From: a virus
Length of the DNA stretch: 64,000 nt
Virus record (IMG/VR): IMGVR_UViG_3300028840_006907
Span: 96,001 to 160,000 of that record
Reading direction: 5' to 3' (one strand)
In this document: piece after piece, positions 20,064-37,325 of the stretch
Position numbering within the stretch: position 1 is the first letter of the stretch
How the letters are laid out: every line of letters starts with the position of its first letter
Position numbers and translations under genes: made by a program
The notes under the pieces: model-generated
Told to the model about the DNA's origin: nothing
Database searches by the model: none
The model's input: only the letters and a program-made list of their open reading frames with translations

Positions 20064-20522
20064 ATGAATATAAGAGATAGAGTGTTAGATCTTTTAGAGA
20101 AAAGTTCGAAACCCTTATCTTCAGAAGAAATTGCAAAGCAATTGAAGCTAACTAATCGGCAGGTTCAAGAAGCAAACACAAAACTTAAAAGACAAAAGCG
20201 TATTAAATCACATGGTATTCGTCCATGTAAGTTTTCGTTTCTCACAAGAGAACTAGGGACAAAACTATCAACCAAAAAAGTCGAAAAGAAAAAAACTGAA
20301 AAGAAGAAAACGACTGTTAAAAATAGTTCTTCTTTTAAATTTAATGGCTACATATTGATGTTTTTAACGGAGGATTCTCCTGACCCTAAGATGCTCCATG
20401 ATTTTGATAATGCTAAAGAATTAACTGATAAATTCGAAGAACTTCAAGATATGGATGGATTGATTGATATAGCGGCTTATTCAAAAATTGGGATGGTTCG
20501 AAAACTACAATTAGAAATTTAA
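20064..20522 (+). CDS. winged-helix DNA-binding protein
   Basis: 152 aa; N-terminal MarR-like VLDLLEKSSKPLSSEEIAKQL. Confidence 0.45.
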   Translation: MNIRDRVLDLLEKSSKPLSSEEIAKQLKLTNRQVQEANTKLKRQKRIKSHGIRPCKFSFLTRELGTKLSTKKVEKKKTEKKKTTVKNSSSFKFNGYILMFLTEDSPDPKMLHDFDNAKELTDKFEELQDMDGLIDIAAYSKIGMVRKLQLEI

Positions 20523-20523
20523 T

Positions 20524-21405
20524 TTATTTGTCTATATAGTGATAGCCCATTTTCTCCCACTGCTCTCTGAATTGAATAGCTTCATATTCTATCCCTAATA
20601 AATTTATTAGTATCTTTTCACTCTTTTTTGTTTTTTGTTGAATAGCTTGTTTAGTGATTTTATAAGAGTTAGCTAATTCTTCAAAAGTCCATTTACCTTT
20701 ATTATCCAAATTATACCGATGGATAATAATATTTTGTTGTTGTTCATTTAAATAGTTTTTTATGACTCTTCGAATGATAACATCTATTTCCGAATTCTCA
20801 TATTCTTTTCCGGTTAAGTAATGTTCATCAAGATCAGGTATATTATTTATTAGAAGGATGTCTTCAATTTCATTTCCATTACCTATGGGTTCATAGAGAG
20901 ATTCAACTTTTAATAATTTAAATCTCAATTTTTCCTTTTCTGTATATCTAATGTGAGGCATGTATTTTGTAATTATATTCTTTCTCGCTATTGGTGGTAT
21001 CATACTCATTATAAAAGTGGTCTCTTTATAAGCTGGGTTATAGCATTTACTTGAATGGGTGAGAATAGTAAGATTGATTTCATTTATAATATCCTGATAT
21101 TCTACTCCACCTTGTAAAGAGGTATATATCTTCTTTGCTATATTCACGACTATTCCTTCGTGTTTGGCTGGATCTATACGGTATATCTGTCGTATTAAAA
21201 TTTCTTTTCCTTTTATGGATGGTGAAGGTCTTTCTTTAAAGAGGCGGTATTCAGCTATTTTATTTTTTATTTGTTTAATTCCCGCTTTTTTGGCTGTCTT
21301 TTCATCGGTACAATTTGTTACTACTGCTGTGAATACTCTTTTGGAACCACTGAGATTTAATTTATCAGCTTTACCTTGTAATTTTACCTTAACTTCAAAT
21401 AGCAT
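20524..21405 (-). CDS. sigma-70-family-like transcription factor (divergent)
   Basis: 293 aa; C-terminal region-4-like HTH (FEELANSYKITKQAIQQ). Confidence 0.45.
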   Translation of the reverse strand: MLFEVKVKLQGKADKLNLSGSKRVFTAVVTNCTDEKTAKKAGIKQIKNKIAEYRLFKERPSPSIKGKEILIRQIYRIDPAKHEGIVVNIAKKIYTSLQGGVEYQDIINEINLTILTHSSKCYNPAYKETTFIMSMIPPIARKNIITKYMPHIRYTEKEKLRFKLLKVESLYEPIGNGNEIEDILLINNIPDLDEHYLTGKEYENSEIDVIIRRVIKNYLNEQQQNIIIHRYNLDNKGKWTFEELANSYKITKQAIQQKTKKSEKILINLLGIEYEAIQFREQWEKMGYHYIDK

Positions 21406-21564
21406 TATAACTCTCTTATTTTTTATATGAATATTTTCCAGGAATCACCCTAGCATGATCTGTGATATTTTGTTGTGGAATTTATTTAAATTACAGTTTA
21501 TGGGATTCTAATTATGACATGAATATTTAAAGAATATTACGATTTAATTTATTTGAAGAAGTTG

Positions 21565-21593
21565 TTGACTTTTTATTCGAAATTGAGTATACT
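21565..21593 (+). promoter_or_regulatory. sigma70-like promoter TTGACT-N17-TATACT
   Basis: Near-consensus -35/-10 with 17-nt spacer. Confidence 0.5.
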
Positions 21594-21632
21594 ATACAAA
21601 TAGCAAATGAAATTTAAATTAAAGAAGGAAAA

Positions 21633-21722
21633 ATGACTTCAATAAATCTAAGCGCAATTATAAAAACAGCGGGAGCCACCGGGACAACAGTCGTAGTGGG
21701 TACGGCAGGAGTATTGCCTTAG
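21633..21722 (+). CDS. small Gly/Thr/Ala-rich peptide (29 aa)
   Basis: AAGGA RBS then MTSINLSAIIKTAGATGTTVVVGTAGVLP, followed by terminator. Confidence 0.4.
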   Translation: MTSINLSAIIKTAGATGTTVVVGTAGVLP

Positions 21723-21757
21723 AGGAAGTCTATATTATATATAAAGTCAAAGAAAAA

Positions 21758-21792
21758 GGACTTCCTCGATAAAAAGAGGGAGTCCTTTTTTT
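21758..21792 (+). terminator. rho-independent terminator
   Basis: Stem GGACTTCCTC/GAGGGAGTCC then TTTTTTT. Confidence 0.6.
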
Positions 21793-21794
21793 AT

Positions 21795-21868
21795 GCCGGA
21801 ATAGCTCAGTTGGCCAGAGCGGTTGATTTGTAATCAATTCGTCGGGGGTTCGAATCCCTCTTTCGGCT
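21795..21868 (+). tRNA. tRNA-Thr (anticodon TGT)
   Basis: Hand fold: acceptor GCCGGAA/TTTCGGC, loop TTTGTAA, T-loop GGTTCGAATCC. Confidence 0.8.
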
Positions 21869-21934
21869 TGTAAATTTATTTGGAAAGGAGATGACATGAT
21901 GGCGAAAGTGTGATACTTAAACAAAGGAGCCGTT

Positions 21935-22234
21935 ATGTCTCATCCGAAAAACAAAAGAGAACGTTTTCTTATTGGGAAACGTAAAGGGGAAAAACGTTCT
22001 TATTTGTATTGGAGTGGTTATTCCAATTGGTTTGACCTTCCAGATTATTTCTATAAGAAAAGCCCTCGTAATAAGGGTGTTGAGTATGAGGAGAAAAAGA
22101 GATTACTCGAAAAGAGTAAAGCAATAAGAAGGGATACAACAAAGTTATGCTCTTGTCCTCAGTGTGGAAATCCGCGCAGACATTTTAAAGAGCGTACTTT
22201 ACAAGAAAAAAGATATTTTACTGCGGGGGGCTAG
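21935..22234 (+). CDS. hypothetical basic protein with C-terminal CxxC
   Basis: 99 aa; CSCPQCGNPRRH. Confidence 0.45.
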   Translation: MSHPKNKRERFLIGKRKGEKRSYLYWSGYSNWFDLPDYFYKKSPRNKGVEYEEKKRLLEKSKAIRRDTTKLCSCPQCGNPRRHFKERTLQEKRYFTAGG

Positions 22235-22294
22235 GCCTGGTGGTCTGGCAGGTCTCATAAGCCTGCAACTCAAGTTCAATTCTTGGCCCCGCAA
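22222..22294 (+). tRNA. tRNA-Met-like (anticodon CAT), atypical D-arm
   Basis: Hand fold: acceptor TGCGGGG/CCCCGCA, anticodon stem CAGGT/GCCTG, loop CTCATAA, T-loop TTCAATT. Confidence 0.5.
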
Positions 22295-22314
22295 ATGCAT
22301 ATAAAGGGGAAATA

Positions 22315-22683
22315 ATGGGAATGGATATACATGAGTGTTTTGAATATAAATTAAAATCATTTAATGAAATGGTTGCAAAGATCAATGAGAAACCGAAAGA
22401 AGATGAAGAGATCGATCTTGATAAACCTTATATCAGTCAATGGGATCATTTTGAGAGCTTCTTGAGGGAATTAATCTCTGATGATCACAGTCGGTTTAAA
22501 AGTGCTATTTTATGGCTTTTCTTTGCTGATGAAGAATTAGAGTTGCATGAAAAGATGAAAAACTTGTTTAACATATTAACAGATTTTGACGATAAACAAT
22601 TGATCTCTATGGTTTATGATTCGGGTTGTGATCGAGTGAAAGTTGATTTTGATAAATCGGAAAGTATAATTCATATGGAATAA
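22315..22683 (+). CDS. hypothetical acidic protein
   Basis: 122 aa ORF. Confidence 0.5.
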   Translation: MGMDIHECFEYKLKSFNEMVAKINEKPKEDEEIDLDKPYISQWDHFESFLRELISDDHSRFKSAILWLFFADEELELHEKMKNLFNILTDFDDKQLISMVYDSGCDRVKVDFDKSESIIHME

Positions 22684-22689
22684 AAATGG

Positions 22690-22765
22690 GGGCCGGAATG
22701 TTCCAAGGGGGCGAGAATGCCTTGCAAGCAATCTGCGGTGAGTTCGATTCTCACTCGGTCCACCA
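22690..22765 (+). tRNA. tRNA-Ala-like (anticodon TGC), degenerate D-arm
   Basis: G3:U70 acceptor pair, loop CTTGCAA, 3' half close to canonical tRNA-Ala (GTTCGATTC...TCCACCA); D-arm and one anticodon-stem pair irregular. Confidence 0.45.
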
Positions 22766-22919
22766 TAAGTAAAATAACAAAATCTTTCAAAAGGAAGTAG
22801 GCTTAAGAGTAGCCACTTTAATGAGTGATGAAAGGCGATGTGCACACGAATTTCGTGGAGTAGTTATCCGAATAGTCTTTGGTGTAACAACACACCTTTT
22901 GAAAGATTATTAATATAAT

Positions 22920-22994
22920 GCGAGTGTAGTTCAATGGCAGAACCCCACCCTTCCAAGGTGGTTGTTGTGAGTTCAAATCTCATCACTCGCTCCA
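22920..22994 (+). tRNA. tRNA-Gly (anticodon TCC)
   Basis: Hand fold: acceptor GCGAGTG/CACTCGC, loop CTTCCAA, CCA. Confidence 0.85.
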
Positions 22995-23001
22995 AATTTA
23001 T

Positions 23002-23076
23002 GCGGTAGTAGCTCAATGGTGGAGTTCCTCTTTGCCAAGGAGGAGGTTATCGGTTCAAGCCCGATCTACCGCTCCA
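23002..23076 (+). tRNA. tRNA-Gly (anticodon GCC)
   Basis: Hand fold: acceptor GCGGTAG/CTACCGC, loop TTGCCAA, CCA. Confidence 0.85.
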
Positions 23077-23166
23077 GGTCAAAGGCTCTGGCAGGTTGCC
23101 TTAAATAAAATGGGGTGTGGGTACCTAGGCACTTCTCACATCTCTGCCTGACCTGATTAAATTTAC

Positions 23167-23245
23167 GGGCGCGTAGCCTAGCTGGTTAGGGCACCTGTTT
23201 TACACGCAGGAGATTTCGTAGGTTCAAGTCCTACCGCGCCTACCA
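23167..23245 (+). tRNA. tRNA-Val (anticodon TAC)
   Basis: Hand fold: acceptor GGGCGCG/CGCGCCT, loop TTTACAC, T-arm GTAGGTTCAAGTCCTAC, CCA. Confidence 0.8.
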
Positions 23246-23253
23246 TAAATCAA

Positions 23254-23328
23254 GCCGGAGTAGCTCAGAGGCAGAGCAACGCTCTCGTAAAGCGTAGGTC
23301 AAGGGTTCAAGTCCCTTTTCCGGCTCCA
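23254..23328 (+). tRNA. tRNA-Thr (anticodon CGT)
   Basis: Hand fold: acceptor GCCGGAG/TTCCGGC, loop CTCGTAA, CCA. Confidence 0.85.
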
Positions 23329-23424
23329 TTATGAAAGAAGAAATAATATGCCAAAAGCAGAAAGGGCAGATGCCCATTAACTATCTCTGGAAAAACAATT
23401 GATGGAAATTTCGTTGTTAAGGGT

Positions 23425-23655
23425 GTGTTTCCATTATTCTCTTCATTAACAGGCTTACCTCTTGAAGATATCCTAGAAGTTTTAAAACAGAATAATATGA
23501 TTGTGGATTGGCTGGATTTTTATGACCAGGCAATGGAAGAGAATTGGAAACCGAAACGGACTTTATTGAAAATTCGTGATTCGGTCGGAGAGGTATATGG
23601 ATCTAAGGTAGGAGAAGAGATCATGAAAAAATTTAAAATTTTTCGGGATATTTGA
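23425..23655 (+). CDS. hypothetical protein
   Basis: 76 aa ORF. Confidence 0.4.
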   Translation: MFPLFSSLTGLPLEDILEVLKQNNMIVDWLDFYDQAMEENWKPKRTLLKIRDSVGEVYGSKVGEEIMKKFKIFRDI

Positions 23656-23705
23656 TATTCTAGTCTCGTATAATATTTATAGGGATATTTAAATATAAAT
23701 AATAA

Positions 23706-24290
23706 ATGGAGGGAAATATGGTAAATAAAGATCCAGAAGATGTGGCTTTATTCGACATGGATGGCACTCTCTGTGACTACGAGAAAGGACTTATAAAGAG
23801 CTTGGAACAACTCAGGTCACCAATGGAGCCTCCTGTAACGAAACCACCTTCAAAAAGTTCCCCGAACTATTTAAGGGTACGTGCGGATCTGGTACGTACG
23901 AATGAAGATTGGTATGTTAACCTTGATCGATTTGAACTTGGTTTTGATATCTGGAATATTGCTGAAGAACTCGATTATACCAGAATGATTTTAACCCAAG
24001 GCCCGAAACGAAATCCATTCGCATGGTCTGGGAAAAAGATGTGGATCGATAAGCATCTGGGGACGGATGTTGGCATCACCATCACGCGAGATAAAGGGTT
24101 AGTGTATGGACGTGTTCTTGTAGATGACTACCCAGGATATATCAATCGTTGGTTGGAATGGCGTAGGAACGGGTTGGTAGTAATGCCAGCTAGTAGAATT
24201 AATGGTGATTTCAAGCATCCTCAGGTTATCCGATATGACGGGAGTAATTTAAATGAAGTCAGAGAAAGAATGATTGCAGTGAAGAGGTAA
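23706..24290 (+). CDS. HAD-superfamily 5'(3')-deoxyribonucleotidase-like phosphatase
   Basis: 194 aa; motif I FDMDGTL, VLVDDYP. Confidence 0.6.
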   Translation: MEGNMVNKDPEDVALFDMDGTLCDYEKGLIKSLEQLRSPMEPPVTKPPSKSSPNYLRVRADLVRTNEDWYVNLDRFELGFDIWNIAEELDYTRMILTQGPKRNPFAWSGKKMWIDKHLGTDVGITITRDKGLVYGRVLVDDYPGYINRWLEWRRNGLVVMPASRINGDFKHPQVIRYDGSNLNEVRERMIAVKR

Positions 24291-24291
24291 T

Positions 24292-24693
24292 ATGAGAATG
24301 GTTTATTGTTTTCAAGATTTTGGGTCACACGGATTAATATATCCTCTTGAAGGTGATAATACTCCTAATATGGTTTTTTATATTGAGGAAAATGAAAACG
24401 GTATTTTAGATAATGCATATTTAATGAATACTATTTTTTGTAAAACAAAAGAGATATTCAATACAATTCTTAATAGAATTAAGAATGATCTATTTGAAGT
24501 GAAATATAAAGATTATTCGATTATGTTTAAAGCAATGAAATCGGATAAATCTTATGTGGGTAAATTAAAAAAGCCTTCGAATTCTCTATGGACATTAACA
24601 GAAATTGAAAAAAAAGATACAATCACTCAAATAGATTTATTTATAAAATGTGGCATTGTTCTAATAGGTTATTCTGAGGGAAAAGTAAAATGA
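24292..24693 (+). CDS. hypothetical protein
   Basis: 133 aa ORF. Confidence 0.4.
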   Translation: MRMVYCFQDFGSHGLIYPLEGDNTPNMVFYIEENENGILDNAYLMNTIFCKTKEIFNTILNRIKNDLFEVKYKDYSIMFKAMKSDKSYVGKLKKPSNSLWTLTEIEKKDTITQIDLFIKCGIVLIGYSEGKVK

Positions 24694-28170: not shown

Positions 28171-28199
28171 TTGACACGGTTATGTTTTTTTAGTATTAT
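28171..28199 (+). promoter_or_regulatory. sigma70-like promoter TTGACA-N17-TATTAT
   Basis: Consensus -35 with 17-nt spacer. Confidence 0.5.
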
Positions 28200-28408
28200 T
28201 AAGGGTAGTTATTGAAGATTAAATTTTTAAAAAGTAGGAAAATGATGAATTTATTTAAGGCCCAGAACACAGTCAAAAGCATAAGACTACTATCAAGTAG
28301 TTTTAAATGCTCATTGTGTTTATCCCATATGCTCTATTCAATTAGAGGAAAACAGGTATGGGTGGGGTCTATGTGAATGTGATTTAATACATAATACGGA
28401 TAAAAAAA

Positions 28409-28442
28409 GCCCCCGCCCGATAAAAAGGACGGGGGCTTTTTT
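28409..28442 (+). terminator. rho-independent terminator
   Basis: GC stem GCCCCCG/CGGGGGC then TTTTTT. Confidence 0.65.
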
Positions 28443-28767: not shown

Positions 28768-28843
28768 GGCTGTCTGACCGATGTGGTAAAGGTGCTGGAC
28801 TGAAAATCCAGAAATTCCGGTTCAATTCCGGAGGCAGCCACCA
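28768..28843 (+). tRNA. tRNA-Phe (anticodon GAA)
   Basis: Hand fold: acceptor GGCTGTC/GGCAGCC, loop CTGAAAA, CCA. Confidence 0.85.
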
Positions 28844-28870
28844 TTAGTAAATTAGTGTTTTTTAATAAAA

Positions 28871-28946
28871 GGGCGTATCGGCAAGCGGTTAAGCCACTAC
28901 TCTGATAAGGTAGCATGCGAAAGTTCAAATCTTTCTACGCCCACCA
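28871..28946 (+). tRNA. tRNA-Ile (anticodon GAT)
   Basis: Hand fold: acceptor GGGCGTA/TACGCCC, loop CTGATAA, CCA. Confidence 0.85.
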
Positions 28947-28965
28947 TAAATCTTAGGAGGACAAG

Positions 28966-29187
28966 GTGTTCTGGGTTTTACAAAACAATCTTTTTAATGA
29001 AGTAGGGTTTCAGTCTTTGGTAGGAACTCTGGAAAGGATGAATATAAAACATATCATTGTGAAAGTGGTTCCTTTTGTAGGAGATATAATTCCTGACATA
29101 AACCCGAAGAACCCTGTCATAGCAGTGGGAGCCTATTCCATGTGGAAGGTTGCCAAAAGAAAAGATGGCACCCAGGTGTCTTTGTGA
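28966..29187 (+). CDS. ATP-grasp protein, N-terminal fragment (frame differs from downstream part)
   Basis: 73 aa ORF overlapping 29142-29732 in another frame. Confidence 0.4.
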   Translation: MFWVLQNNLFNEVGFQSLVGTLERMNIKHIIVKVVPFVGDIIPDINPKNPVIAVGAYSMWKVAKRKDGTQVSL

Positions 29188-29732
29188 ATGAGAATTTTAC
29201 GTATCCGAAATTGATAAAACATTATGGAGACAATCTCTTAAATAAAGAATGCAATATAACTACACTTGAGAATGTTCTCCCGAAATATAACGAATTTTTT
29301 ATAAAACCTTGTAAGGATAGTAAAGTTTTCTCAGGACAAAGGATGACCTGGGTAGAATTTAAAGAGTGGAGAGAAAGAATCTTAGAACTCGGATGGGAGG
29401 GTTCAGTAAAGGGAAGTACCTGTGTAGTACAGGCACCTGTAAAAGAAATCTACCGGGAGTACCGGTTCTTTATAGTGAATGGTAAAGTTGTCACAGGTTC
29501 GCAATACAGAGTAGGAATGCGGGTATTTTCAACGGAATGTCATGAAAAGGATGTAATTGAATATGCTCAACGAATGGTTGATCTCTGGAGTCCGGATGTA
29601 GGTTTTGTCATTGACATAGCACTAACTCCTGAAGGATTCAAAGTTATCGAGATAAACTGTTTAAATGCTTCAGGCTTTTATGCCTGTGATATGAGTAAAG
29701 TAGTTTTTGCATTGGAGAAAATTTATAATTAA
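29142..29732 (+). CDS. ATP-grasp domain protein (C-terminal part)
   Basis: 196 aa; EYRFFIVNGKVV...VIDIALT...KVIEINCLNASGFY. Confidence 0.55.
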   Translation: MEGCQKKRWHPGVFVNENFTYPKLIKHYGDNLLNKECNITTLENVLPKYNEFFIKPCKDSKVFSGQRMTWVEFKEWRERILELGWEGSVKGSTCVVQAPVKEIYREYRFFIVNGKVVTGSQYRVGMRVFSTECHEKDVIEYAQRMVDLWSPDVGFVIDIALTPEGFKVIEINCLNASGFYACDMSKVVFALEKIYN

Positions 29733-29733
29733 C

Positions 29734-29819
29734 GCAGACGTGCTGGAATGGTAGACAGGCTTGGCTAAGGACCAAGTGTTCGTATGGGCGTGAGAGTTCG
29801 AGTCTCTCCGTCTGCACCA
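29734..29819 (+). tRNA. tRNA-Leu (anticodon read as AAG), type II
   Basis: Hand fold: acceptor GCAGACG/CGTCTGC, loop CTAAGGA, long variable arm, CCA. Confidence 0.75.
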
Positions 29820-29833
29820 TATAGGAAGTAAAG

Positions 29834-29998
29834 ATGGGCGAATGTAATTGCTGTTATATGACAATGGGAGAACATGCTTTGACTTGCCCTGCGTATAAAA
29901 GGGATAAAAGTCAGCCCTGTGATTGTTGCTATATGACAACAGGAGAACATGCTCTTACTTGCCCACAGTATGAAATTGAAGATAATGAGGAGGATTAA
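29834..29998 (+). CDS. small Cys-rich protein with internal tandem repeat (54 aa)
   Basis: Hand translation MGECNCCYMTMGEHALTCPAYKRDKSQPCDCCYMTTGEHALTCPQYEIEDNEED; RBS AGGAAG. Confidence 0.45.
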   Translation: MGECNCCYMTMGEHALTCPAYKRDKSQPCDCCYMTTGEHALTCPQYEIEDNEED

Positions 29999-30077
29999 GA
30001 TGGGACTGAACTCATCGTTGTTTAAACGTAAGTGGTTTGTAGATTAAGACCTGAGCCTGAGTGCTACAGGTCTGTAC

Positions 30078-30150
30078 GGGCTTGTGGCCAAGTTGGTAAG
30101 GCTCTTGACTTTTAATCAAGAAATCGTCAGTTCGATCCTGACCAGGCCCA
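30078..30150 (+). tRNA. tRNA-Lys (anticodon TTT)
   Basis: Hand fold: acceptor GGGCTTG/CAGGCCC, loop CTTTTAA. Confidence 0.85.
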
Positions 30151-30159
30151 TATGTAAAC

Positions 30160-30236
30160 GCTCCCGTAACTCAGTTGGTCAGAGTAGCTGATTCTTAATC
30201 AGCGAGTCGAGTGTTCAAATCACTCCGGGAGTACCA
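30160..30236 (+). tRNA. tRNA-Lys (anticodon CTT)
   Basis: Hand fold: acceptor GCTCCCG/CGGGAGT, loop TTCTTAA, CCA. Confidence 0.8.
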
Positions 30237-30255
30237 TAAGTAAAGTAAATAATTC

Positions 30256-30344
30256 GGAAGGGAGCCAGATATTGGTTAGCTGGGGCTGTCTGCTAAACAG
30301 TTGTTCTATAAGGACTTAGGGTTCAATTCCCTATCCTTCCGCCA
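30256..30344 (+). tRNA. tRNA-Ser (anticodon GCT), type II
   Basis: Hand fold: acceptor GGAAGGG/TCCTTCC, loop CTGCTAA, long variable arm, CCA. Confidence 0.8.
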
Positions 30345-30360
30345 TAAAAAGAAGATTAGC

Positions 30361-30603
30361 ATGAAAGATGAAGATGAACTTAAATGGTGTGATGACGATT
30401 GCAAAAATTGTGATGACGATTCAATAATTAAAGAAATACATGCTATTCGGAAGGAACATGCTAAAAGGTTTAATTATGATATAAAAGCTATGGGAGACGA
30501 TCACAAATTAAAACATCCAATCATTGTAGAGATGATGACTGCAAGTAGAAAAGGAGATCATGAAACTGTTAGAAAATTAAGACAAAAGTTGAATTCTATG
30601 TGA
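30361..30603 (+). CDS. small Cys-rich protein
   Basis: ORF trimmed to first ATG after tRNA-Ser; WCDDDCKNCDDD. Confidence 0.45.
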   Translation: MKDEDELKWCDDDCKNCDDDSIIKEIHAIRKEHAKRFNYDIKAMGDDHKLKHPIIVEMMTASRKGDHETVRKLRQKLNSM

Positions 30604-30767
30604 ATGAAAAGATTTTAAAAATGAATATGAAAAAGAAAGAACAGAAAAAGGCAATAAAATGGGGCAGAAGAAAGATATACATAGGAAGAAAAAGATTAAT
30701 GCCCGTAAACGAAAACCGTGTAATCGGGATTGCGAAAACTATAAAAAATTCAAGTGTTAATATATAG

Positions 30768-30845
30768 GGCCGAGTGGTGAAGTTGTTTTAACACGGTAGT
30801 CTGCAAAACTATTATGCGTCGGTTAGAATCCGACCTCGGCCTCCA
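30768..30845 (+). tRNA. tRNA-Cys (anticodon GCA)
   Basis: Hand fold: acceptor GGCCGAG/CTCGGCC, loop CTGCAAA, CCA. Confidence 0.75.
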
Positions 30846-31068
30846 GTTCTTTGAAATAAATAAGTATATCGAGTCCACGCGCAGATGTTAAGTCTGTGAG
30901 GAAGCTCAGGACATCACCGCTGACGGAAGGAGACGTAAGTCGTAGGTACTTCCTAGGATGCAACACAAACAGACCTATGCCGGTGAGCGGGGCTATGATG
31001 GTCGGGTTAGTGGCAAAGATAAATGTGGACATAAAACAGAATCCTGGCTACGGATATACTTATTATAC

Positions 31069-31175
31069 GGAGAGGTAGGTTTAATTGGTAAAATCAGTGC
31101 TTTGCACAGCACCTAAGCTAGCAAGGTGCCATTCCAGGGATGGATTTCGGGGTTCAAGTCCCCGTCTCTCTGCCA
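31069..31175 (+). other. atypical 107-nt tRNA-like element (canonical acceptor, D-arm and T-arm; aberrant anticodon region)
   Basis: GGAGAGG/TCTCTCT acceptor pairing, D-arm GGTTTAATTGGTAAAATC, T-arm CGGGGTTCAAGTCCCCG, CCA; middle holds GTGCTTTGCAC hairpin and GCTAGC palindrome. Confidence 0.35.
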
Positions 31176-31186
31176 ATAAATTATAC

Positions 31187-31275
31187 GGAGGTAGACCGGC
31201 TGGACGAGGAGCCTGTCTTGAAAACAGGTAGGGCTGTAAAAGGTCTTCGGGGTTCAAGTCCTCGTGCCTCCGCCA
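31187..31275 (+). tRNA. tRNA-Ser (anticodon TGA), type II
   Basis: Hand fold: acceptor GGAGGTA/TGCCTCC, loop CTTGAAA, CCA. Confidence 0.8.
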
Positions 31276-31351
31276 TAAAAACAATAGTTATCAAAAGGTA
31301 ACTATAAGTTCTTTGACATTTCGGTTATTATGAAGTAAGCACATATTTATA

Positions 31352-31430
31352 TGGTGAGCGTAGCTTAACTTGGTTAGAGCACTGGATTGTGGTTCCAGGA
31401 GTTGGGGATTCGAGTTCCCTCGCTCACCCC
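31352..31430 (+). tRNA. tRNA-His (anticodon GTG)
   Basis: Extra 5' G(-1) opposite C73, loop TTGTGGT, CCA. Confidence 0.85.
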
Positions 31431-31459
31431 ATAAATTTTCATTTTATATAGAATGAAAC

Positions 31460-31549
31460 GAGTAGGAGGTCAGATAGTGGTTGGCTGCACCGGACTGTAA
31501 ATCCGGATCTCGTAAAGGGACGCTGGGGGTTCGACGCCCTCCCTACTCA
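31460..31549 (+). tRNA. tRNA-Tyr (anticodon GTA), type II
   Basis: Hand fold: acceptor GAGTAGG/CCTACTC, loop CTGTAAA, long variable arm. Confidence 0.8.
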
Positions 31550-31563
31550 TTTGTCAATTTTAT

Positions 31564-31649
31564 GGAGAGCAACCGAATGGTTAGGAGGCGGTTTCGAAAA
31601 CCGTTAAGGCTGAAAGGCTAACTAAGTTCGATTCTTAGGCTCTCCGCCA
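31564..31649 (+). tRNA. tRNA-Ser (anticodon CGA), type II
   Basis: Hand fold: acceptor GGAGAGC/GCTCTCC, loop TTCGAAA, CCA. Confidence 0.8.
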
Positions 31650-32066
31650 TTAACAAACAGATTTTAAAAAAGATGATGCTACTCTTTTAATTGCTTCTTT
31701 ATCGGCGTTTTCCATTTGATTAACAATTTTTTTGGCCCAGGTATATCCAGAATCACCTCCCCAAACAAGCCATGCTACATAACCTTTATCTTTCCATGGT
31801 TCATTTTTATATTCTGGGTTTATCTTTTTATTCTTTTGATGACGGTCGAAGAAAGCTTTCATTCTTTTGACTGTTTTGGGAGATAAAATATCTCTGTTTT
31901 TAAGATTAACAGCTCTTTGAACACCAGACCCAACACCTTCTGCTTTTGCCTGTTCAACTGTTAGTCCTCCTTTACCACCGGCCATTCTTCTATATCTTAA
32001 ACCTTTTTCAGCTTCTTTGGCTACTGATTCAGGAGGTTTAAAATTGATATGTTCATATTTTTTCAT
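31650..32066 (-). CDS. hypothetical protein
   Basis: 138 aa ORF, Gly-rich GGKGGLT and WLVWGGDSGY motifs. Confidence 0.5.
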   Translation of the reverse strand: MKKYEHINFKPPESVAKEAEKGLRYRRMAGGKGGLTVEQAKAEGVGSGVQRAVNLKNRDILSPKTVKRMKAFFDRHQKNKKINPEYKNEPWKDKGYVAWLVWGGDSGYTWAKKIVNQMENADKEAIKRVASSFLKSVC

Positions 32067-32116
32067 AATAAATAACTCCTTATTATGTTTTTATATATTT
32101 ATAGATAATTATTTTT

Positions 32117-32202
32117 GGAGGATATCCGAATTGGTTTAGGGGCTCGGTTGGAAACCGAGTGGGCTCAATGCCTTGCAGGTTCGATCCCTGTGTCCTCCGC
32201 CA
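32117..32202 (+). tRNA. tRNA-Ser (anticodon GGA), type II
   Basis: Hand fold: acceptor GGAGGAT/GTCCTCC, loop TTGGAAA, CCA. Confidence 0.8.
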
Positions 32203-32282
32203 CTTTTTCAAAAAAACTTCCGAACAATTCTTGTTCTCATGTCGTATCATATATAGGGGCTGTTTTTTATGAAAGGTAAGAT

Positions 32283-32624
32283 ATGGGTCGATACCAAATA
32301 GCACTGGAGAAAAAACCTAAAAAGATCGAGTTAAATAAATCCGATACTAAGAAAATTGATATTTCTAATAAATCTGAATTAAAACAATCATATTTCACCG
32401 ATCTTAAAGTGATGATGGAGTTTATGGCTGAAAAGGGTGGTAATTGGATACCAGAAAAAGATCTTTATTTTGAAGAGATCCCTTTAGTAGCCTATAAATC
32501 TGATAACGAAATGGTTGTCATTACTGCAAAGGATATGCATCTTACGGAAAAGAATATAACGGAAATGGACAGAAAATCTTTTAGATCTGAGAAACCTCTT
32601 CGATTTAAAAAGTTTTTTGAGTAG
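32283..32624 (+). CDS. MxRY-family small protein (paralog 1)
   Basis: 113 aa; N-terminus MGRYQIALEKKPKK. Confidence 0.5.
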   Translation: MGRYQIALEKKPKKIELNKSDTKKIDISNKSELKQSYFTDLKVMMEFMAEKGGNWIPEKDLYFEEIPLVAYKSDNEMVVITAKDMHLTEKNITEMDRKSFRSEKPLRFKKFFE

Positions 32625-32636
32625 GATAGGAATCAT

Positions 32637-32945
32637 ATGAGCCGGTATCGTATCATAGTTGATGAAAAAAAAGAAGAAGAACAGATCCATTTAAGACAGG
32701 AACGAAATAAAGAAGAGAATAATCGCATATTTGACGATGTAAAAAAGATGAGTGACTTTATGTCCCTATTAAATTCAGTATGGGTTCCTACTCATTTTGG
32801 GTTCATTATGAAATACAGGGAATTTGAAGGAGTGATAACAGTTATTATAAGTACTGCAGAGTATAATAAAACAAAAGATCTTTTACCCAAAGAATTGTTA
32901 ATACAATTCGAAGCTCATGGAGTGGTAGTTTTTAAAAAATCATGA
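32637..32945 (+). CDS. MxRY-family small protein (paralog 2)
   Basis: 102 aa; N-terminus MSRYRIIVDEKK. Confidence 0.5.
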   Translation: MSRYRIIVDEKKEEEQIHLRQERNKEENNRIFDDVKKMSDFMSLLNSVWVPTHFGFIMKYREFEGVITVIISTAEYNKTKDLLPKELLIQFEAHGVVVFKKS

Positions 32946-33262
32946 GTAGATACAAAATAGCATTAAATAAGGGAAAGTCTCCCGAAGATAAAGAATTAAA
33001 TGAGTATTTTGCAAATAAACCAGAACATAGTATTTCGTTTATAAGTGCTGTAGATGTTTATAATTTTTTATCTGAAGAAAGTGATAAATGGTTCCCAGAT
33101 TCTGGGACACCTTTGATAATAAGTTATGTAAATAAAGATAAAAATAGATCGTTTATGATAACTCAATATAACTGGAATAAGACAAAGCATTTTATACCAG
33201 TATCTATTTTGAGATCCATTGAAGAAAGAGCACCGTTTTTCGTATCAAAAAAGAGAGTATGA
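32942..33262 (+). CDS. MxRY-family small protein (paralog 3)
   Basis: 106 aa; N-terminus MSRYKIALNKGK. Confidence 0.5.
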   Translation: MSRYKIALNKGKSPEDKELNEYFANKPEHSISFISAVDVYNFLSEESDKWFPDSGTPLIISYVNKDKNRSFMITQYNWNKTKHFIPVSILRSIEERAPFFVSKKRV

Positions 33263-33263
33263 A

Positions 33264-33788
33264 ATGGGACAAGAAATTTGGTTGTACCCAGATCCGGTTC
33301 AGATACCTAAGGTAAAAGAGTACGTTAAACTTTTAGGTAAGAGGGTGGATGATTATAATTACATCGATGGACCGGATTTTGATGGTTGGGAAATGAATTG
33401 TTGGATTGAATGGACAACAGTGGATCCCGAATGGGAGAGTGATACAGAAGAATACAGTTTTGAAGGTATGGATGAATTCTTAGAAATAGGTTATCAATCT
33501 CATCACTATAAGGGTGATTTCGCAGAATGTATTGCCTGGGAAATTAAAAAACGATTTACAATACTTAAAGTTGGTTGGGATTCAATTGGATGGTCCACTC
33601 AGTTCTGGGATAATGAGCCTTTTGATTTTCAGATAAAGATGAGACAAAAAACATTGAAAAAAGATTTGAGTGATGAAATGCGAAGGGATTTCGAAGAAGA
33701 AATAGTTATGATAAAAAAGATAAAAGAAGGCTGTATGGGTTTTGCCAAAGAGCTGTTCTTAAAAGCTGATCAATTACTAAAAAATTAA
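33264..33788 (+). CDS. hypothetical Trp-rich acidic protein
   Basis: ORF-track 33219-33788 trimmed to ATG just after upstream stop (MGQEIWLYPDP...). Confidence 0.5.
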   Translation: MGQEIWLYPDPVQIPKVKEYVKLLGKRVDDYNYIDGPDFDGWEMNCWIEWTTVDPEWESDTEEYSFEGMDEFLEIGYQSHHYKGDFAECIAWEIKKRFTILKVGWDSIGWSTQFWDNEPFDFQIKMRQKTLKKDLSDEMRRDFEEEIVMIKKIKEGCMGFAKELFLKADQLLKN

Positions 33789-33790
33789 AT

Positions 33791-33946
33791 ATGGGTAGAT
33801 ACGAGATAGCACTAGATAAGCAACCGAAGAGAGTTTTAAATTTGAATCATTTTAAACAACAAGCCCAAACTGTTATATCAAGCTGGCCTAAATGGAAAAG
33901 ACAGGGAGCGGGTAAAGAGGAAACAGCTCCAATTAAAAGAAAATGA
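33791..33946 (+). CDS. MxRY-family small protein (paralog 4, 51 aa)
   Basis: Hand translation MGRYEIALDKQPKRVLNL...; below ORF-track cutoff. Confidence 0.4.
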   Translation: MGRYEIALDKQPKRVLNLNHFKQQAQTVISSWPKWKRQGAGKEETAPIKRK

Positions 33947-33964
33947 GTTATTAAGGGATACAGT

Positions 33965-34318
33965 ATGAGTCGTTTTGATATTGCCTTGGGTAAAGAACTC
34001 CCAAAGGTAAAAAAGACCAAAAATTCTAAGAAAAGTAAGAAGGCTAAAAAGAAGGTTATTTCTCCGTATGATTTAAAGAGTAATGTAACTGTATTTACGA
34101 ATGCTCGTAAGATGTATGAGTTTATGGGTTTGGCAATAGGTTCTTGGCATCCTGTTATTTCTGACCCACCGGTGATTGGTTATCATAACCCGGCTTGGGA
34201 AGGGATCTCGGTTACAATTAGTGTTGAAGATTACAACAAAACAAAAAGTCCAATTAAGGGTATTAAGATGCCTGTTATGAGTCCTGTTGAAATTGTAGGA
34301 AATTTGTTTAGAAAATAA
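33965..34318 (+). CDS. MxRY-family small protein (paralog 5)
   Basis: 117 aa; N-terminus MSRFDIALGKELPK. Confidence 0.5.
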   Translation: MSRFDIALGKELPKVKKTKNSKKSKKAKKKVISPYDLKSNVTVFTNARKMYEFMGLAIGSWHPVISDPPVIGYHNPAWEGISVTISVEDYNKTKSPIKGIKMPVMSPVEIVGNLFRK

Positions 34319-34320
34319 AT

Positions 34321-34397
34321 GGCAGTGTAGCATAGTAGATTAATGCATTCGGCTCATATCCGGGAGATCGGAGGTTTAATTCCTCTCACTGCCACCA
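34321..34397 (+). tRNA. tRNA-Met/Ile2 (anticodon CAT)
   Basis: Hand fold: acceptor GGCAGTG/CACTGCC, loop CTCATAT, CCA. Confidence 0.75.
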
Positions 34398-34420
34398 ATT
34401 TACATAAAGAAAGAAGTAGT

Positions 34421-34621
34421 ATGACATATGAATTAGAATTTGATCCTGAATATGAAGAACAAATTCGTGAGGCAGAATTACTTGCTAGTGATATATGCCC
34501 TACGTGCCTTGGTTCAGGTAAGGTCTATGGTAAATGGAATACAAAAAAACGGTGTACTGACTGTGATGGTACAGGAAAACACCCGGATAATCATAAAGAA
34601 GAAAAGGAGCTTCCTTATTAA
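34421..34621 (+). CDS. small DnaJ-type zinc-finger protein (CXXCXGXG x2)
   Basis: Trimmed to ATG after tRNA; CPTCLGSGK and CTDCDGTGK. Confidence 0.5.
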   Translation: MTYELEFDPEYEEQIREAELLASDICPTCLGSGKVYGKWNTKKRCTDCDGTGKHPDNHKEEKELPY

Positions 34622-34900
34622 TGGCAACAAACAACCAGACTACAACGCGCTGGGATCCTAATGGTGAAATCGTGAAAAACTATGGTTGTTTGAGCGATTG
34701 TGACGGTGCGATAATCCGATGACGGTGGACTCCGTAGCTGAAGCTCCATATCAGCTTCTATGGGTAACAATGGAGATAACCCATAGCGCAGGGCTGTCAT
34801 AGCTTTAGAGTGTCATATAAGGAAGTATCCTTATATAAATTTATTAACCCTTTACAAAGGAGGTAGATATGCTATAACACAATAAACAAGGAGTTATAGT

Positions 34901-35137
34901 ATGTCTAGAAGTTACAGAAAGCCGTATGTAAAAGACGGCTATGGATCAAAGGGCAAAAGATTCATGAAGAATTATGCCAATCGGGTGGTAAGGCATTCTA
35001 AGGATGTTCCGAATGGCAGAGCCTATAAGAAATTATTTTGTTCTTATGATATTTGTGATTATTATTTCTACGTGGAAGTAAAGAGAAAGGATGATCCTTA
35101 TTTTGAACCAGAGTTCTGGAAATACGCCAGAAAATGA
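34901..35137 (+). CDS. hypothetical basic protein
   Basis: 78 aa ORF. Confidence 0.4.
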   Translation: MSRSYRKPYVKDGYGSKGKRFMKNYANRVVRHSKDVPNGRAYKKLFCSYDICDYYFYVEVKRKDDPYFEPEFWKYARK

Positions 35138-35309
35138 AATAAAAGTACAAGCTACAAGGATAATGCAGGAATTACTTAAACGCATCTTAGACAATTCTGC
35201 AGAGGTAGGACGACCAGACCCAGACATAAGATATGGCTCTTCTCTTCATGTTTTAAGTAAATCCATTGGGCAAGTCATGGCGGAGGAATTGGAGAAATTG
35301 AAGAAATGA
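35091..35309 (+). CDS. hypothetical protein
   Basis: 72 aa ORF overlapping neighbour in another frame. Confidence 0.35.
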   Translation: MILILNQSSGNTPENEIKVQATRIMQELLKRILDNSAEVGRPDPDIRYGSSLHVLSKSIGQVMAEELEKLKK

Positions 35310-35503
35310 AAGTTTCATTCCATTTTTTATGGTATGACTTCTGGGTCGGGTTCTTTTGGGATCAAAAGAAACGAATTTTGTACTTTTGCCCATTACCATG
35401 TGCCGTTATTAAAATGAAATTCAGGAAAAGGAAAATTGATAAAGGTTTTCGACATCCAAAATTAAGCTTCTTTTATAAAGTTTTTAAAGGGAAAAAAGAA
35501 TAA
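35306..35503 (+). CDS. hypothetical protein
   Basis: 65 aa ORF. Confidence 0.35.
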   Translation: MKVSFHFLWYDFWVGFFWDQKKRILYFCPLPCAVIKMKFRKRKIDKGFRHPKLSFFYKVFKGKKE

Positions 35504-35557
35504 CTATTTGTGCTGTAATAAAGATGGGATTTTAATTGTAGAAAAAGTTATAGGATT

Positions 35558-36142
35558 ATGATGAGTGAAGCTCGTAAAAGTTATGCTAAACGTTCATTTA
35601 TTATAGGTAAATTTAAATATATCTTTAAAATATATGTTACTGAAGAACTAATATTTTCATCAGAGGATCTATTCCCTTTAAGGGATAAGACTATGATAAC
35701 ATTTTTTAGAACGAATTCTTATATTGAAACAGCAAAACAAATGAATATCTCAATTCCTGAATTAAAGAAAAAGATCTTAAATACTATAGAATTACTTGGA
35801 GAAGTTAGATCATTCTATTTAACGAAAAAACTTGTTAGGCATAATAAAAAAAGTAAAGATTGTAATTTAGGAACTTATAGAACAAAAAGAATAAGAGTAA
35901 GTGAATATAAAAAACCATTAGTTGAAGAATTCAGATGTAATATTAAGAGGTATCAAAATATAATGGGTAAATTTTTGAGCCCTTTAAAAAAGGATGTTAT
36001 GGAATTAATATTGAAAAACGGCTCTTATTTAAAAACAGCTAAAAGATTGAATATAACACCCAAAAAAGTCAGAAATGAGCTTGTGGGAATAGTTAAATTA
36101 CTTAAAAAGGTGAAAAAGACTGATTGGATTATTCCATCATAG
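35558..36142 (+). CDS. DNA-binding protein with two HTH repeats (sigma-70 region-4-like)
   Basis: 194 aa; repeated YIETAKQMNIS / YLKTAKRLNIT helix-turn-helix-like segments. Confidence 0.5.
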   Translation: MMSEARKSYAKRSFIIGKFKYIFKIYVTEELIFSSEDLFPLRDKTMITFFRTNSYIETAKQMNISIPELKKKILNTIELLGEVRSFYLTKKLVRHNKKSKDCNLGTYRTKRIRVSEYKKPLVEEFRCNIKRYQNIMGKFLSPLKKDVMELILKNGSYLKTAKRLNITPKKVRNELVGIVKLLKKVKKTDWIIPS

Positions 36143-36328
36143 AAAAGAGATATTATGACCATATGTCCTTATTGTAATGAACAAAGAAGTTTAGAGCATG
36201 ATAATTCATGTGTTCTCTGGAAACGAAGAATATACATAGGTTTTACGAATGCCCTGATGTGCCTTTTCGGGATACTTTTAATATTTGGTCTAATGTTTCT
36301 TGTAATAAAGTATGGTTGAAAGATTTAT

Positions 36329-36410
36329 GGCCGAGTGGCAGAATTGGCAGACGCGCTAGATTTAGGATCTAGTTTCGAAAGAATTGGAGGTTCGATCCCT
36401 CTCTCGGCTA
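36329..36410 (+). tRNA. tRNA-Leu (anticodon TAG), type II
   Basis: Hand fold: acceptor GGCCGAG/CTCGGCT, loop TTTAGGA, long variable arm. Confidence 0.8.
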
Positions 36411-36438
36411 TTTAAAGAATTCTTTAAAGGTAAATAAG

Positions 36439-36741
36439 ATGAGAACTTATGGACAAATAGTAGATGATGTAAAAAAGGTTTCAGGGCCTCAATTAGTGGC
36501 TTTGTTCTGCGTCATAGCAGGTGAGTGTATAAAAAAGAAATGTTTCAATCCTGGTGGGATGAAAACAACTATTGCCAGAATAGAAAACAGAATTGCTGAA
36601 GAAATGGGTAAAGAAGAACCTAAACCTAAGATAGCGGAATTAACGTGTGGAAGTTGTGGAGCCACTTACACTTTAGATACGAATTATATACATCGTACAT
36701 GTGGCTTACGGGGCTGTAAAGGTAAGTTACATAAATTATAA
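36439..36741 (+). CDS. zinc-ribbon protein
   Basis: 100 aa; CGSCG...CGLRGC. Confidence 0.45.
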   Translation: MRTYGQIVDDVKKVSGPQLVALFCVIAGECIKKKCFNPGGMKTTIARIENRIAEEMGKEEPKPKIAELTCGSCGATYTLDTNYIHRTCGLRGCKGKLHKL

Positions 36742-36749
36742 ATAAAAAT

Positions 36750-36833
36750 GATCGGGTGGAGGAATTGGGATACTCAGCAAATTTAAGCTTTGCTGTCCTT
36801 TGTGACATGCGGGTTCGATTCCCGCCCCGATTA
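36750..36833 (+). tRNA. tRNA-Leu (anticodon TAA), type II
   Basis: Hand fold: acceptor GATCGGG/CCCGATT, loop TTTAAGC, long variable arm. Confidence 0.8.
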
Positions 36834-36846
36834 TTATATAATAATT

Positions 36847-37323
36847 ATGGTTTACAAAAATTGTAGAACATACGGCCCTTATGAAGGTAAAGATGGTAGA
36901 CTAAGAGTATGTGTAGTTTACCCTGATTTGAGTAAAAGAACAGTATCATATCCTAAATATCTTATGGAGAAACATTTGAATAGATATTTAGAAAAGAATG
37001 AAACAATAGATCATAAAGATGAAAATCCTTTAAATAATAAATTAAGTAATTTGAATATTCTTATTAAAGGTGATCATTGCCGTAAACATGCTAAGAGATT
37101 GTTACCTAGAAGTTTTAGCTGCCCTCAATGTAAGAAACCGTTTGTTTTATCAGGACGAAGATTACATGATGCTATACAAAACAGAAAAAGAGGTAAAGTG
37201 GGTCCTTTTTGTAATAAAAGATGTGGGGGAATATACGGAACAGATGTTCAAAATAAAAGAATAGAAGTTTTAGATGTGATTCAAATACCTGTTGAATATG
37301 AGCCTAAAATAAAAGAGATATAG
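36847..37323 (+). CDS. HNH homing endonuclease
   Basis: Trimmed to ATG after tRNA-Leu; IDHKDENPLNNKLSNL HNH_3-like motif. Confidence 0.7.
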   Translation: MVYKNCRTYGPYEGKDGRLRVCVVYPDLSKRTVSYPKYLMEKHLNRYLEKNETIDHKDENPLNNKLSNLNILIKGDHCRKHAKRLLPRSFSCPQCKKPFVLSGRRLHDAIQNRKRGKVGPFCNKRCGGIYGTDVQNKRIEVLDVIQIPVEYEPKIKEI

Positions 37324-37325
37324 AC

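Follow-up and report, generated by a model that had tools for sequence, protein, structure and literature searches.

What is the function of a 29-codon open reading frame (ORF) that is preceded by its own promoter and followed by an intrinsic terminator, 2 nt past which a transfer RNA (tRNA) gene starts? This arrangement is found at 21565–21792 on the plus strand of the 64,000-nt window analyzed here, which has ~33% G+C, 35 ARAGORN-called tRNAs and one transfer-messenger RNA (tmRNA) and is part of a metagenomic contig of 388,651 bp (JGI 3300017963) from a huge phage. The first-pass annotation proposed that it was either a regulatory leader or an independently expressed micro-protein. Our results strongly support the former option and specify it: the element, referred to as leader A, likely acts as the leader in a trp/his/thr-type system of ribosome-mediated transcription attenuation, which gates a phage tRNA cluster. 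A more specific reading of the sequence, in which leader A would provide feedback on the supply of the tRNAs downstream of it, is somewhat less certain.

The promoter, AAGGA site, 29-amino acid (aa) ORF and terminator noted in the first-pass annotation are all present. The promoter of leader A consists of TTGACT (21565–21570), a 17-nt spacer and TATACT (21588–21593), agrees with the consensus at 10 of 12 positions and outscores all other sigma-70-type sites in the region of 20500–24500; from its position, a transcription start near 21600 is predicted. The Shine-Dalgarno sequence AAGGA (21625–21629) is 3 nt 5' of the ATG codon of ORF A (21633–21722), which contains 29 codons and a TAG stop codon (21720–21722). 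Its product is MTSINLSAIIKTAGATGTTVVVGTAGVLP, and the same ORF was also predicted by a public gene caller on the source contig. The regulatory codon run of leader A (21666–21713) comprises codons 12–27 (T A G A T G T T V V V G T A G V); without exception, these 16 are Thr, Ala, Gly or Val codons.

The terminator of leader A (21753–21792) is composed of a 5' arm (segment 3; 21758–21767), a loop (21768–21775), a 3' arm (segment 4; 21776–21785) and a run of seven Ts (21786–21792). In the DNA, the 5' arm, loop and 3' arm are GGACTTCCTC, GATAAAAA and GAGGGAGTCC, respectively, and the RNA arms are GGACUUCCUC (segment 3) and GAGGGAGUCC (segment 4). The energy of the hairpin is −17.4 kcal/mol, and an A-tract at 21753–21757 lets the stem grow by A/U pairs to 17 bp. 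The RNA fold of leader A has a z score of −6.85, and none of 200 shuffles folded as well. Segment 2, the antiterminator strand GAGGAAGUC (21722–21730), overlaps the final base (G) of the TAG stop codon, and its sequence complements the terminator's 5' arm. When the full leader is folded to minimum energy, segment 2 pairs with segment 1 (21636–21658; GACUUC ... AUCUAAG.CGCAA), which may have a role in the switch.

As also noted in the first-pass annotation, leader A lies directly 5' of tRNA-Thr(UGU), which starts at 21795. Given that the 2-nt gap leaves no space for a separate tRNA promoter, the tRNAs of this cluster depend on terminator readthrough. The regulated cluster (21795–23328, plus strand) contains seven tRNAs interspersed with small ORFs: Thr(UGU) at 21795–21868, Met(CAU) at 22224–22294, a cryptic Ala(UGC) at 22690–22765, Gly(UCC) at 22920–22994, Gly(GCC) at 23002–23076, Val(UAC) at 23167–23245 and Thr(CGU) at 23254–23328.

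The codons of leader A correspond to these tRNAs. Under strict wobble rules and with background codon usage derived from the long ORFs of the window, the downstream tRNAs read 13 of the 16 codons of the run and 14 of the 28 sense codons of the ORF (binomial P = 1e-5), and the key run TAGATGTTVVVGTAGV corresponds to Thr(UGU), Met, Ala(UGC), Gly(UCC), Gly(GCC), Val(UAC) and Thr(CGU) (run of 7, P = 2.5e-5). Leader A is one of five copies in the window, designated A to E, which combine a promoter, a short ORF, a terminator and a tRNA cluster. In all five leaders, the codon set of the leader's own cluster was the most enriched, by 1.5- to 3.7-fold, vs. 0 to 1.3-fold for the other sets. Moreover, the cognate codons form single runs of 7 (A), 8 (B), 9 (C), 6 (D) and 21 (E) codons, each with a simulated P ≤ 5e-5.

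Four of the copies stood out in a whole-window scan for strong hairpins followed by T-runs. Few such hairpins were found, and the strongest of them sit just 5' of the first tRNA of each cluster. Terminators A (21758–21792, plus strand), B (3864–3829, minus strand) and C (50142–50174, plus strand) are 3, 7 and 6 nt from tRNA-Thr, tRNA-Glu and tRNA-Gln, respectively, so that the distance ranged from 3 to 7 nt in these three, and terminator E (28409–28442, plus strand) is 326 nt from tRNA-Phe. The fifth terminator, D, is at 49588–49627 (plus strand). The energies of the hairpins, which are followed by U-runs, ranged from −15 to −21 kcal/mol. A TTGAC(A/T)-17-TATxxT promoter is located 190–240 nt 5' of each hairpin, with only an ORF of 24–44 codons between them. 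Every tRNA in the window is located 3' of one of the five units, and the terminators leave no space for a further promoter in front of the tRNAs.

Attenuator B (3823–4014, minus strand) has its promoter at 4014–3986, its ORF at 3976–3902 (MKTTNNIISIAIEWRERDREVHIT) and its terminator at 3864–3835 with a U-run to 3829. Its key run, GAA TGG CGC GAA CGA GAT CGG GAG (EWRERDRE), corresponds to the cluster at 3822–2426 (minus strand), which contains Glu(UUC), Arg(ACG), Met, Trp, Asp and Arg(CCG). Attenuator C (49969–50174, plus strand) contains a promoter with TTGACA (49969–49974) and TATCTT (49992–49997), an ORF at 50036–50110 (MLFTKILNNNPQPNQPTNIYLSGA) and a terminator at 50142–50169 with a U-run to 50174. 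Its key run, NNNPQPNQP, corresponds to Gln, Pro, Pro, Asn, Pro and Gln of cluster C (50180–53189, plus strand), in which the tRNA-Asn gene is split by an intron and the last gene is a suppressor tRNA(CUA). Attenuator D (49403–49628, plus strand) has its promoter at 49403–49431, its ORF at 49488–49565 (MLRMTFNSNPNPQPKNLLFVGVVMI) and its terminator hairpin at 49588–49627, followed by a 110-aa ORF and then by attenuator C; its key run, NPNPQP, corresponds to the tRNAs of cluster C. Attenuator E (28171–28442, plus strand) has its promoter at 28171–28199, an ORF of 44 aa at 28242–28376 and a terminator at 28409–28436 plus a U-run, the loop of which is identical to that of terminator A (GATAAAAA). 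Its key run, in which 21 cognate codons (S, I, R, L, F, K, C, H, M and Y) follow each other without interruption, corresponds to the array of 17 tRNAs at 28768–39509 (plus strand): Phe, Ile, Leu, Lys, Lys, Ser, Cys, Ser, His, Tyr, Ser, Met, Leu, Leu, Leu, Arg and Arg.

In all five leaders, complementarity exists between the terminator's 5' arm and a segment at or near the stop codon. The pairings are GAGGAAGUC with GACUUCCUC (21722–21730 with 21759–21767) in leader A, GAUAGGG / CGGGAG with UCCUGUC in leader B, GUCGGGGG with CCCCCGGC in leader C, UUGGGGUU with AAGCCCCGG in leader D and GGGUGGGG with CCCCGCCC in leader E. For 14 leaders, which included the five of the window and nine from relatives, the duplex energies between this segment and the leader's own arm ranged from −12.9 to −21.7 kcal/mol and were matched by no more than 3% of 500 shuffles of each leader. 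For leader A, the duplex energy was −16.2 kcal/mol and 0 of 500 shuffles was as good. The matrix of duplex energies was block-diagonal by family, except for a few off-block values, such as those of the A leaders of the window and L010 with the B arm of the window.

The geometry of the pairing was assessed with a simulation in which the transcript was folded to equilibrium just before synthesis of the 3' arm while a ribosome footprint was masked codon by codon. When the A site was at or before the cognate run, the antiterminator held the 5' arm with a probability of 0.84–1.0 in leaders A, B, C and E and of 0.69–0.88 in leader D. When the A site was in the last 4–9 codons, this value dropped to 0.27–0.6. 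In all five leaders, the cognate run stops at the masking boundary, which is at codon 26/27 in A, 20/21 in B, 16/17 in C, 14–16 in D and 36/37 in E.

Relatives of family A were found through homologs of the 99-aa ORF that adjoins tRNA-Thr. Their leader DNA is 64–83% identical to that of the window, and its conservation is no higher than that of the neighboring gene. The leader A variants are MTSILSTTITMTVKTTYGTAVFGTAGVLP in L006, L007 and L008, MTSIKTIAIITTAGATGGTVVVGTAGILL in L009, MMISTKTIAIKTTTAGATGTAVVVGTAGVLL in L010 and MKQLTLKATAKATVVGTTGTVGTATLLP in L011. L007, L009, L010 and L011 all keep the reading frame, the Thr/Ala/Gly/Val composition and a stop codon that abuts the antiterminator strand, and every insertion or deletion in the ORF is a multiple of three; the conservation of the frame in homologous loci, by which the first-pass annotation had proposed to judge the ORF, was thus observed. 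The C-terminal half of the peptide (GTAGVLP) is fairly well conserved. The promoter element GTTGACTTTTT...TATACT is retained in L007, L009 and L010, and AAGGAAA(A/G)ATG is retained in L007 and L009. Compensatory changes were found in the terminator, where a C-G pair is replaced by U-A in L009 and an A-U pair by U-A in L011. As promoter, frame and terminator are all kept where the leader DNA is only 64–83% identical, leader A is not a chance occurrence. In these relatives, tRNA-Thr starts 3–5 nt past the T-run and is followed by Met, Ala, Gly and Gly, and by Val and Thr where the contig reaches that far.

Relatives of family E were found through an ATP-grasp gene inside cluster E. A further ATP-grasp homolog, P0016 (L082), lies outside any tRNA array. 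The leader E variants of L003, L004 and L005 share the promoter and a codon block that is identical, TGT TTA TCC nnn ATG CTC TAT TCA. The family E antiterminator GGGG(U/C)GGGG covaries with the terminator arm, with a U-A pair in L003, a C-G pair in L004 and L005 and a U·G pair in the window; the counts for this pair (CG:2, UA:1, UG:1) are suggestive and supportive but not decisive, given that each family comprises only 4–5 sequences. Of the possible antiterminator pairs, 93% are formed in family A and all (100%) in family E, vs. 44–72% in slid controls.

The leader codons also change with the tRNA cargo. A gene for tRNA-Leu(CAG) is present in L003, L004 and L005, joined in at least L003 and L005 by one for tRNA-Ser(CGA), whose position is beyond the end of the L004 contig. 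The leaders of all three contain CTG and TCG codons, whereas leader E of the window lacks these codons and the window lacks these tRNAs. A more distant example is L016, a 202-kb phage contig whose homolog of the 99-aa ORF is only 42% identical. In its leader in front of tRNA-Glu, the terminator arm is related to the B arm and the ORF reads ...EGREGEG..., with a cargo of Glu, Met, Gly and Gly, compared with EWRERDRE in leader B of the window. The second leader of L016, with the run ...VVKVKVVAKRHK..., is followed by Lys(CUU), Lys(UUU), Val(UAC), Val(GAC) and Arg(ACG), each of the five having a cognate codon in the run. In addition, L013 has a 55-codon leader 5' of an array of 37 tRNAs.

Other searches for relatives added little. 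A DNA search of a phage collection with 20500–24500 gave only tRNA-sized matches, and neither IMG/VR scans with three neighboring proteins and two conserved leader DNA patterns nor a metagenome scan with a 184-aa ORF gave any match. A metagenome scan with DNA patterns returned 64 stretches, of which only L048 and L075 were real, both being identical to the L007 variant.

These observations suggest the following mechanism. A host-type RNA polymerase would start near 21600 and transcribe the 29-codon ORF, and a ribosome would trail the polymerase along it, provided that the ORF is translated and that transcription and translation are coupled. If the Thr, Ala, Gly and Val codons are decoded fast, the ribosome would reach the last codons and TAG and cover GAGGAAGUC (21722–21730). 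The 5' arm (21758–21767) would then be free for the 3' arm, and transcription would stop at the U-run, 2 nt before tRNA-Thr. If any cognate tRNA is scarce, the ribosome would stall within codons 12–26, and the exposed GAGGAAGUC would capture the newly made 5' arm. With the terminator blocked, the polymerase would read into Thr, Met, Ala, Gly, Gly, Val and Thr and their interspersed genes, so that stalling would raise readthrough through a kinetic competition between the two structures. The outcome would be a negative feedback by which phage tRNAs are made when their codons limit decoding and are turned off once supply is restored. The sister attenuators B, C, D and E would play the same role for the other tRNA clusters of the window. 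Candidates for the natural trigger, a shortage of tRNAs, include codon-usage mismatch, decay of host tRNAs and anticodon nucleases.

Several observations weigh against this mechanism or limit its scope. Leader B lacks a Shine-Dalgarno sequence and may be leaderless, and the Shine-Dalgarno sequence of leader D is weak. Three of the 16 codons of run A, GCC, ACC and GTC, require expanded U34 wobble or a host tRNA. Transcription-translation coupling is assumed, as the contig is not assigned to a host. The antiterminator forms without a ribosome too in the equilibrium model. Thus, the default may be readthrough rather than trp-like super-attenuation, and given that readthrough is predicted for a leader free of ribosomes, a general failure of translation might be reported by the switch as well. 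Moreover, the full terminator is thermodynamically far stronger than the antiterminator, so that the switch must be kinetic. With regard to conservation, each family comprises 4–5 distinct sequences and the shuffle controls for covariation are weak, and MAFFT shifts L011 by one column, which limits formal covariation statistics. Our script did not detect the architecture in L014/L015 or in L002, an unrelated phage of 595 kb; it is thus clade-specific rather than universal. Finally, the anticodon of the tRNA-Asn of cluster C hinges on the choice of splice sites, for which the ARAGORN default gives Thr(UGU).

The behavior of the antiterminator in the absence of a ribosome could also be accommodated if the same switch reported whether any ribosome finishes the leader, i.e., if it sensed global stress or ribosome shortage and the codon bias were secondary. 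A bacterial tRNA operon induced by translational stress, through a protein repressor, lends some credit to such a sensor of general translation capacity (PMC10272220). We consider this unlikely as the whole explanation, because it accounts neither for the fit of each codon run to its own cluster and not to others, nor for the change of leader codons with tRNA cargo between relatives, nor for runs that end exactly at the masking boundary; the two models are, however, not mutually exclusive. In a further explanation, the hairpin would be a plain insulator or processing element that only ends upstream transcription or marks the 5' processing of the tRNA precursor, and the ORF would be there by chance. 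Although the form of terminators A and E, each with both an A-tract and a T-tract, is bidirectional, the dedicated promoter 190–240 nt 5' of each hairpin with only a short ORF between, together with an ORF frame, codon runs and antiterminator complementarity that are conserved and statistically unlikely, makes this the least probable of the explanations considered.

The reading as an independent membrane-active or precursor micro-protein with its own terminator, whose place before tRNA-Thr would be incidental, draws on the hydrophobicity of peptide A, on its conserved C-terminal half and on the prediction of ORF A by the gene caller. However, the sister ORFs share the architecture but no sequence with ORF A, being charged in B (EWRERDRE), polar in C (NNNPQPNQP) and rich in Ser, Leu, Cys and Lys in E. 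The compositions of the four differ widely from that of ORF A, and each mirrors its own tRNA cluster just as the Gly/Thr/Ala/Val richness of peptide A mirrors Thr, Ala, Gly, Gly, Val and Thr downstream. Given that composition tracks tRNA cargo in this way, the micro-protein option of the first-pass annotation is unsupported. The 2-nt gap, which leaves the tRNAs to readthrough, also argues against an incidental position, and examination of the neighboring genes and comparison of the five leaders revealed neither a peptide conserved for its own sake nor adjacent maturation, export or immunity genes, so that we regard this reading as very improbable. An equally slim chance is given to a translation-independent RNA switch. 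In T-boxes, uncharged tRNA is bound directly and without the need for translation, a single specifier codon is used, and the genes under control are those for synthetases or amino-acid metabolism. The phage leaders resemble them in that tRNA status would be sensed and converted into a choice between terminator and antiterminator, and since the output genes are tRNAs, their anticodons could in principle read cognate triplets without a ribosome, which would make the ORF only apparent. No T-box or other riboswitch was matched in Rfam at gathering or E-value thresholds, and this candidate was rejected. Furthermore, the cognate triplets are in one frame between an ATG, mostly with a Shine-Dalgarno site, and the stop codon, the insertions and deletions of relatives are multiples of three, the position of the stop codon relative to the antiterminator strand is conserved, and there are up to 21 different specifiers per leader, unlike in any T-box.

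Classical leader-peptide attenuators include trpL, hisL, thrL, leuL, ilvL, pheL and the pheA and pheST leaders. Leaders for more than one amino acid exist, such as thrL, which senses Thr and Ile, and ilvL, which senses Ile, Leu and Val. To our knowledge, all classical members regulate genes for amino-acid biosynthesis or aminoacyl-tRNA synthetases. Similar to these attenuators, the principle of which is outlined in PMC1183508 and PMC3082878, the phage leaders contain a promoter-proximal short ORF with a regulatory codon run and an intrinsic terminator before the regulated genes, and their antiterminator shares the 5' arm of the terminator and would be masked by a ribosome that finishes the ORF. 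Different from the classical attenuators, the phage leaders would regulate tRNAs, i.e., the molecules sensed, and small phage ORFs, not enzymes or synthetases, and the loop would close on tRNA supply rather than amino-acid supply. They also sample up to ~17 tRNA species, mostly with 1–3 codons each, and are phage-encoded, with five copies per 64 kb. Thus, the short ORF with start signals, the cognate codon cluster, the intrinsic terminator and the mutually exclusive, maskable antiterminator of a classical attenuator were all found, but since the regulated genes are tRNAs and small phage ORFs, leader A is a variant rather than a member of an existing leader family. The Rfam Thr_leader (RF00506), which is Thr-rich as is leader A, matched 21732–21793, essentially the terminator hairpin, with only 26.2 bits vs. 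a gathering score of 55 (E = 0.068), which is below the threshold for membership. At gathering thresholds, the Rfam hits in the whole window were limited to tRNAs, a group I intron and the tmRNA, with no leader or T-box family among them.

The nearest functional parallel that we found is the trn operon on a megaplasmid of Anabaena, which contains 26 tRNA genes, is controlled by the repressor TrcR and is off under standard conditions and on under translational stress (PMC10272220). It is an accessory tRNA array too, but it is controlled by a protein repressor, and a text search of that report for attenuation, leader, upstream open reading frame (uORF) and terminator found none of them mentioned. 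Control of tRNA genes by a leader peptide was not encountered in a full-text literature search, which did not extend to subscription-only papers.

It has long been asked why phages carry tRNA genes. Current views include codon compensation and the replacement of tRNAs destroyed by host defenses (PMC10264068; PMC11464382; PMC11555353). The same papers treat phage tRNAs as a counter-defense against tRNA-targeting systems, which gives a reason for making them only when host tRNAs are depleted; their titles and abstracts cover phage tRNA function and describe no cis-acting sensor of expression (PMC10264068; PMC11464382; PMC11555353). A leader that reads exactly the codons served downstream implies that the tRNAs would be made on demand, and the old question would become testable by asking which stress relieves termination. 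On balance, we slightly favor the broader view that a clade of huge phages runs its tRNA arrays under demand-sensing feedback by means of 'test track' peptides written in the codons of each array. Such a system would be the first in which tRNA genes are regulated by a cis-acting sensor of tRNA supply, and it would give the phage an inbuilt means of detecting tRNA-targeting immunity. If so, classical attenuation would extend from amino-acid metabolism and synthetases to the tRNA genes themselves, the codons of the leaders would evolve together with the tRNA cargo and might serve to predict cryptic tRNA genes, and the modular multi-codon sensors could become synthetic reporters of the decoding capacity for chosen codons.

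Leader composition can already serve as an annotation rule, as it flagged three tRNAs that a default scan missed. The Ala codons of leader A, the Tyr codons of leader E and the Asn codons of leaders C and D initially had no matching tRNA in the default scan, and a search found all three. In tRNA-Ala(UGC) (22690–22765, plus strand), which was called only at a relaxed ARAGORN threshold, the G3:U70 identity pair is present and the D-arm is weak; a canonical tRNA-Ala(UGC) is at the same place in relatives. tRNA-Tyr(GUA) (31463–31549, plus strand) was likewise called only at a relaxed threshold and is syntenic with the tRNA-Tyr of relatives. The third gene (51361–51632, plus strand) is split in the anticodon loop by a group I intron (51385–51583; Rfam RF00028, 92.8 bits). 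In group I splicing, a U precedes the 5' splice site and a G precedes the 3' splice site. By these rules the gene is probably tRNA-Asn with the anticodon GUU and discriminator base G, a call that is probable rather than certain because of the alternative default splice choice mentioned above.

Additional RNA genes were observed in and around the tRNA clusters. A 104-nt tRNA-like gene at 31069–31172 (plus strand; Rfam tRNA, 30.1 bits) has a loop that reads GCA by eye and a very long extra arm, and may be an unusual class-II-like or Sec-like tRNA. In the related locus L003, 'SeC(tca)' was called at 4982–5080 in the same tRNA array, 3' of tRNA-Tyr. The suppressor tRNA at the end of cluster C (53116–53189, plus strand) has the anticodon CUA and was called 'Pyl' by ARAGORN. 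Recoding of TAG by this tRNA was considered and rejected, as the ORFs of the window fit the standard code and the stop codons of the leaders (TAG, TGA and TAA) vary without a link to the suppressor. The phage tmRNA (15870–16334, minus strand; Rfam 159.9 bits) has no leader ORF, and a TTGATA-17-TATACT promoter of its own is located at 16334–16306. The plus-strand block of tRNAs and genes that begins at leader A is ended at 40199–40223 by a perfect bidirectional terminator (GGGAGTA-loop-TACTCCC with A/T-run flanks).

The genes that neighbor leader A encode a sigma-like protein, a helix-turn-helix protein and proteins of nucleotide metabolism. The sigma-like protein (20524–21405, minus strand) is 293 aa long, is encoded divergently and matches sigma-70 region 4 weakly; among 5.8 billion proteins, its only match was itself. 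The 99-aa ORF between tRNA-Thr and tRNA-Met (21935–22234, plus strand) is conserved, rich in Lys and Arg and contains a CxxC motif, and it ends 11 nt inside tRNA-Met, overlapping the 5' end of that gene (22224). Of its 22 hits, one was the ORF itself and 21 were homologs from other contigs; Pfam gave no match. In L013, a G+C-rich stretch of ~330 nt (3273–3600) between the leader terminator and the first tRNA of the 37-tRNA array is probably structured and non-coding and may be another RNA gene. TnpB/Cas12f1-like genes (PF07282) were found inside the tRNA arrays of the distant relatives L014 (16487–17602) and L016 (11628–12743).

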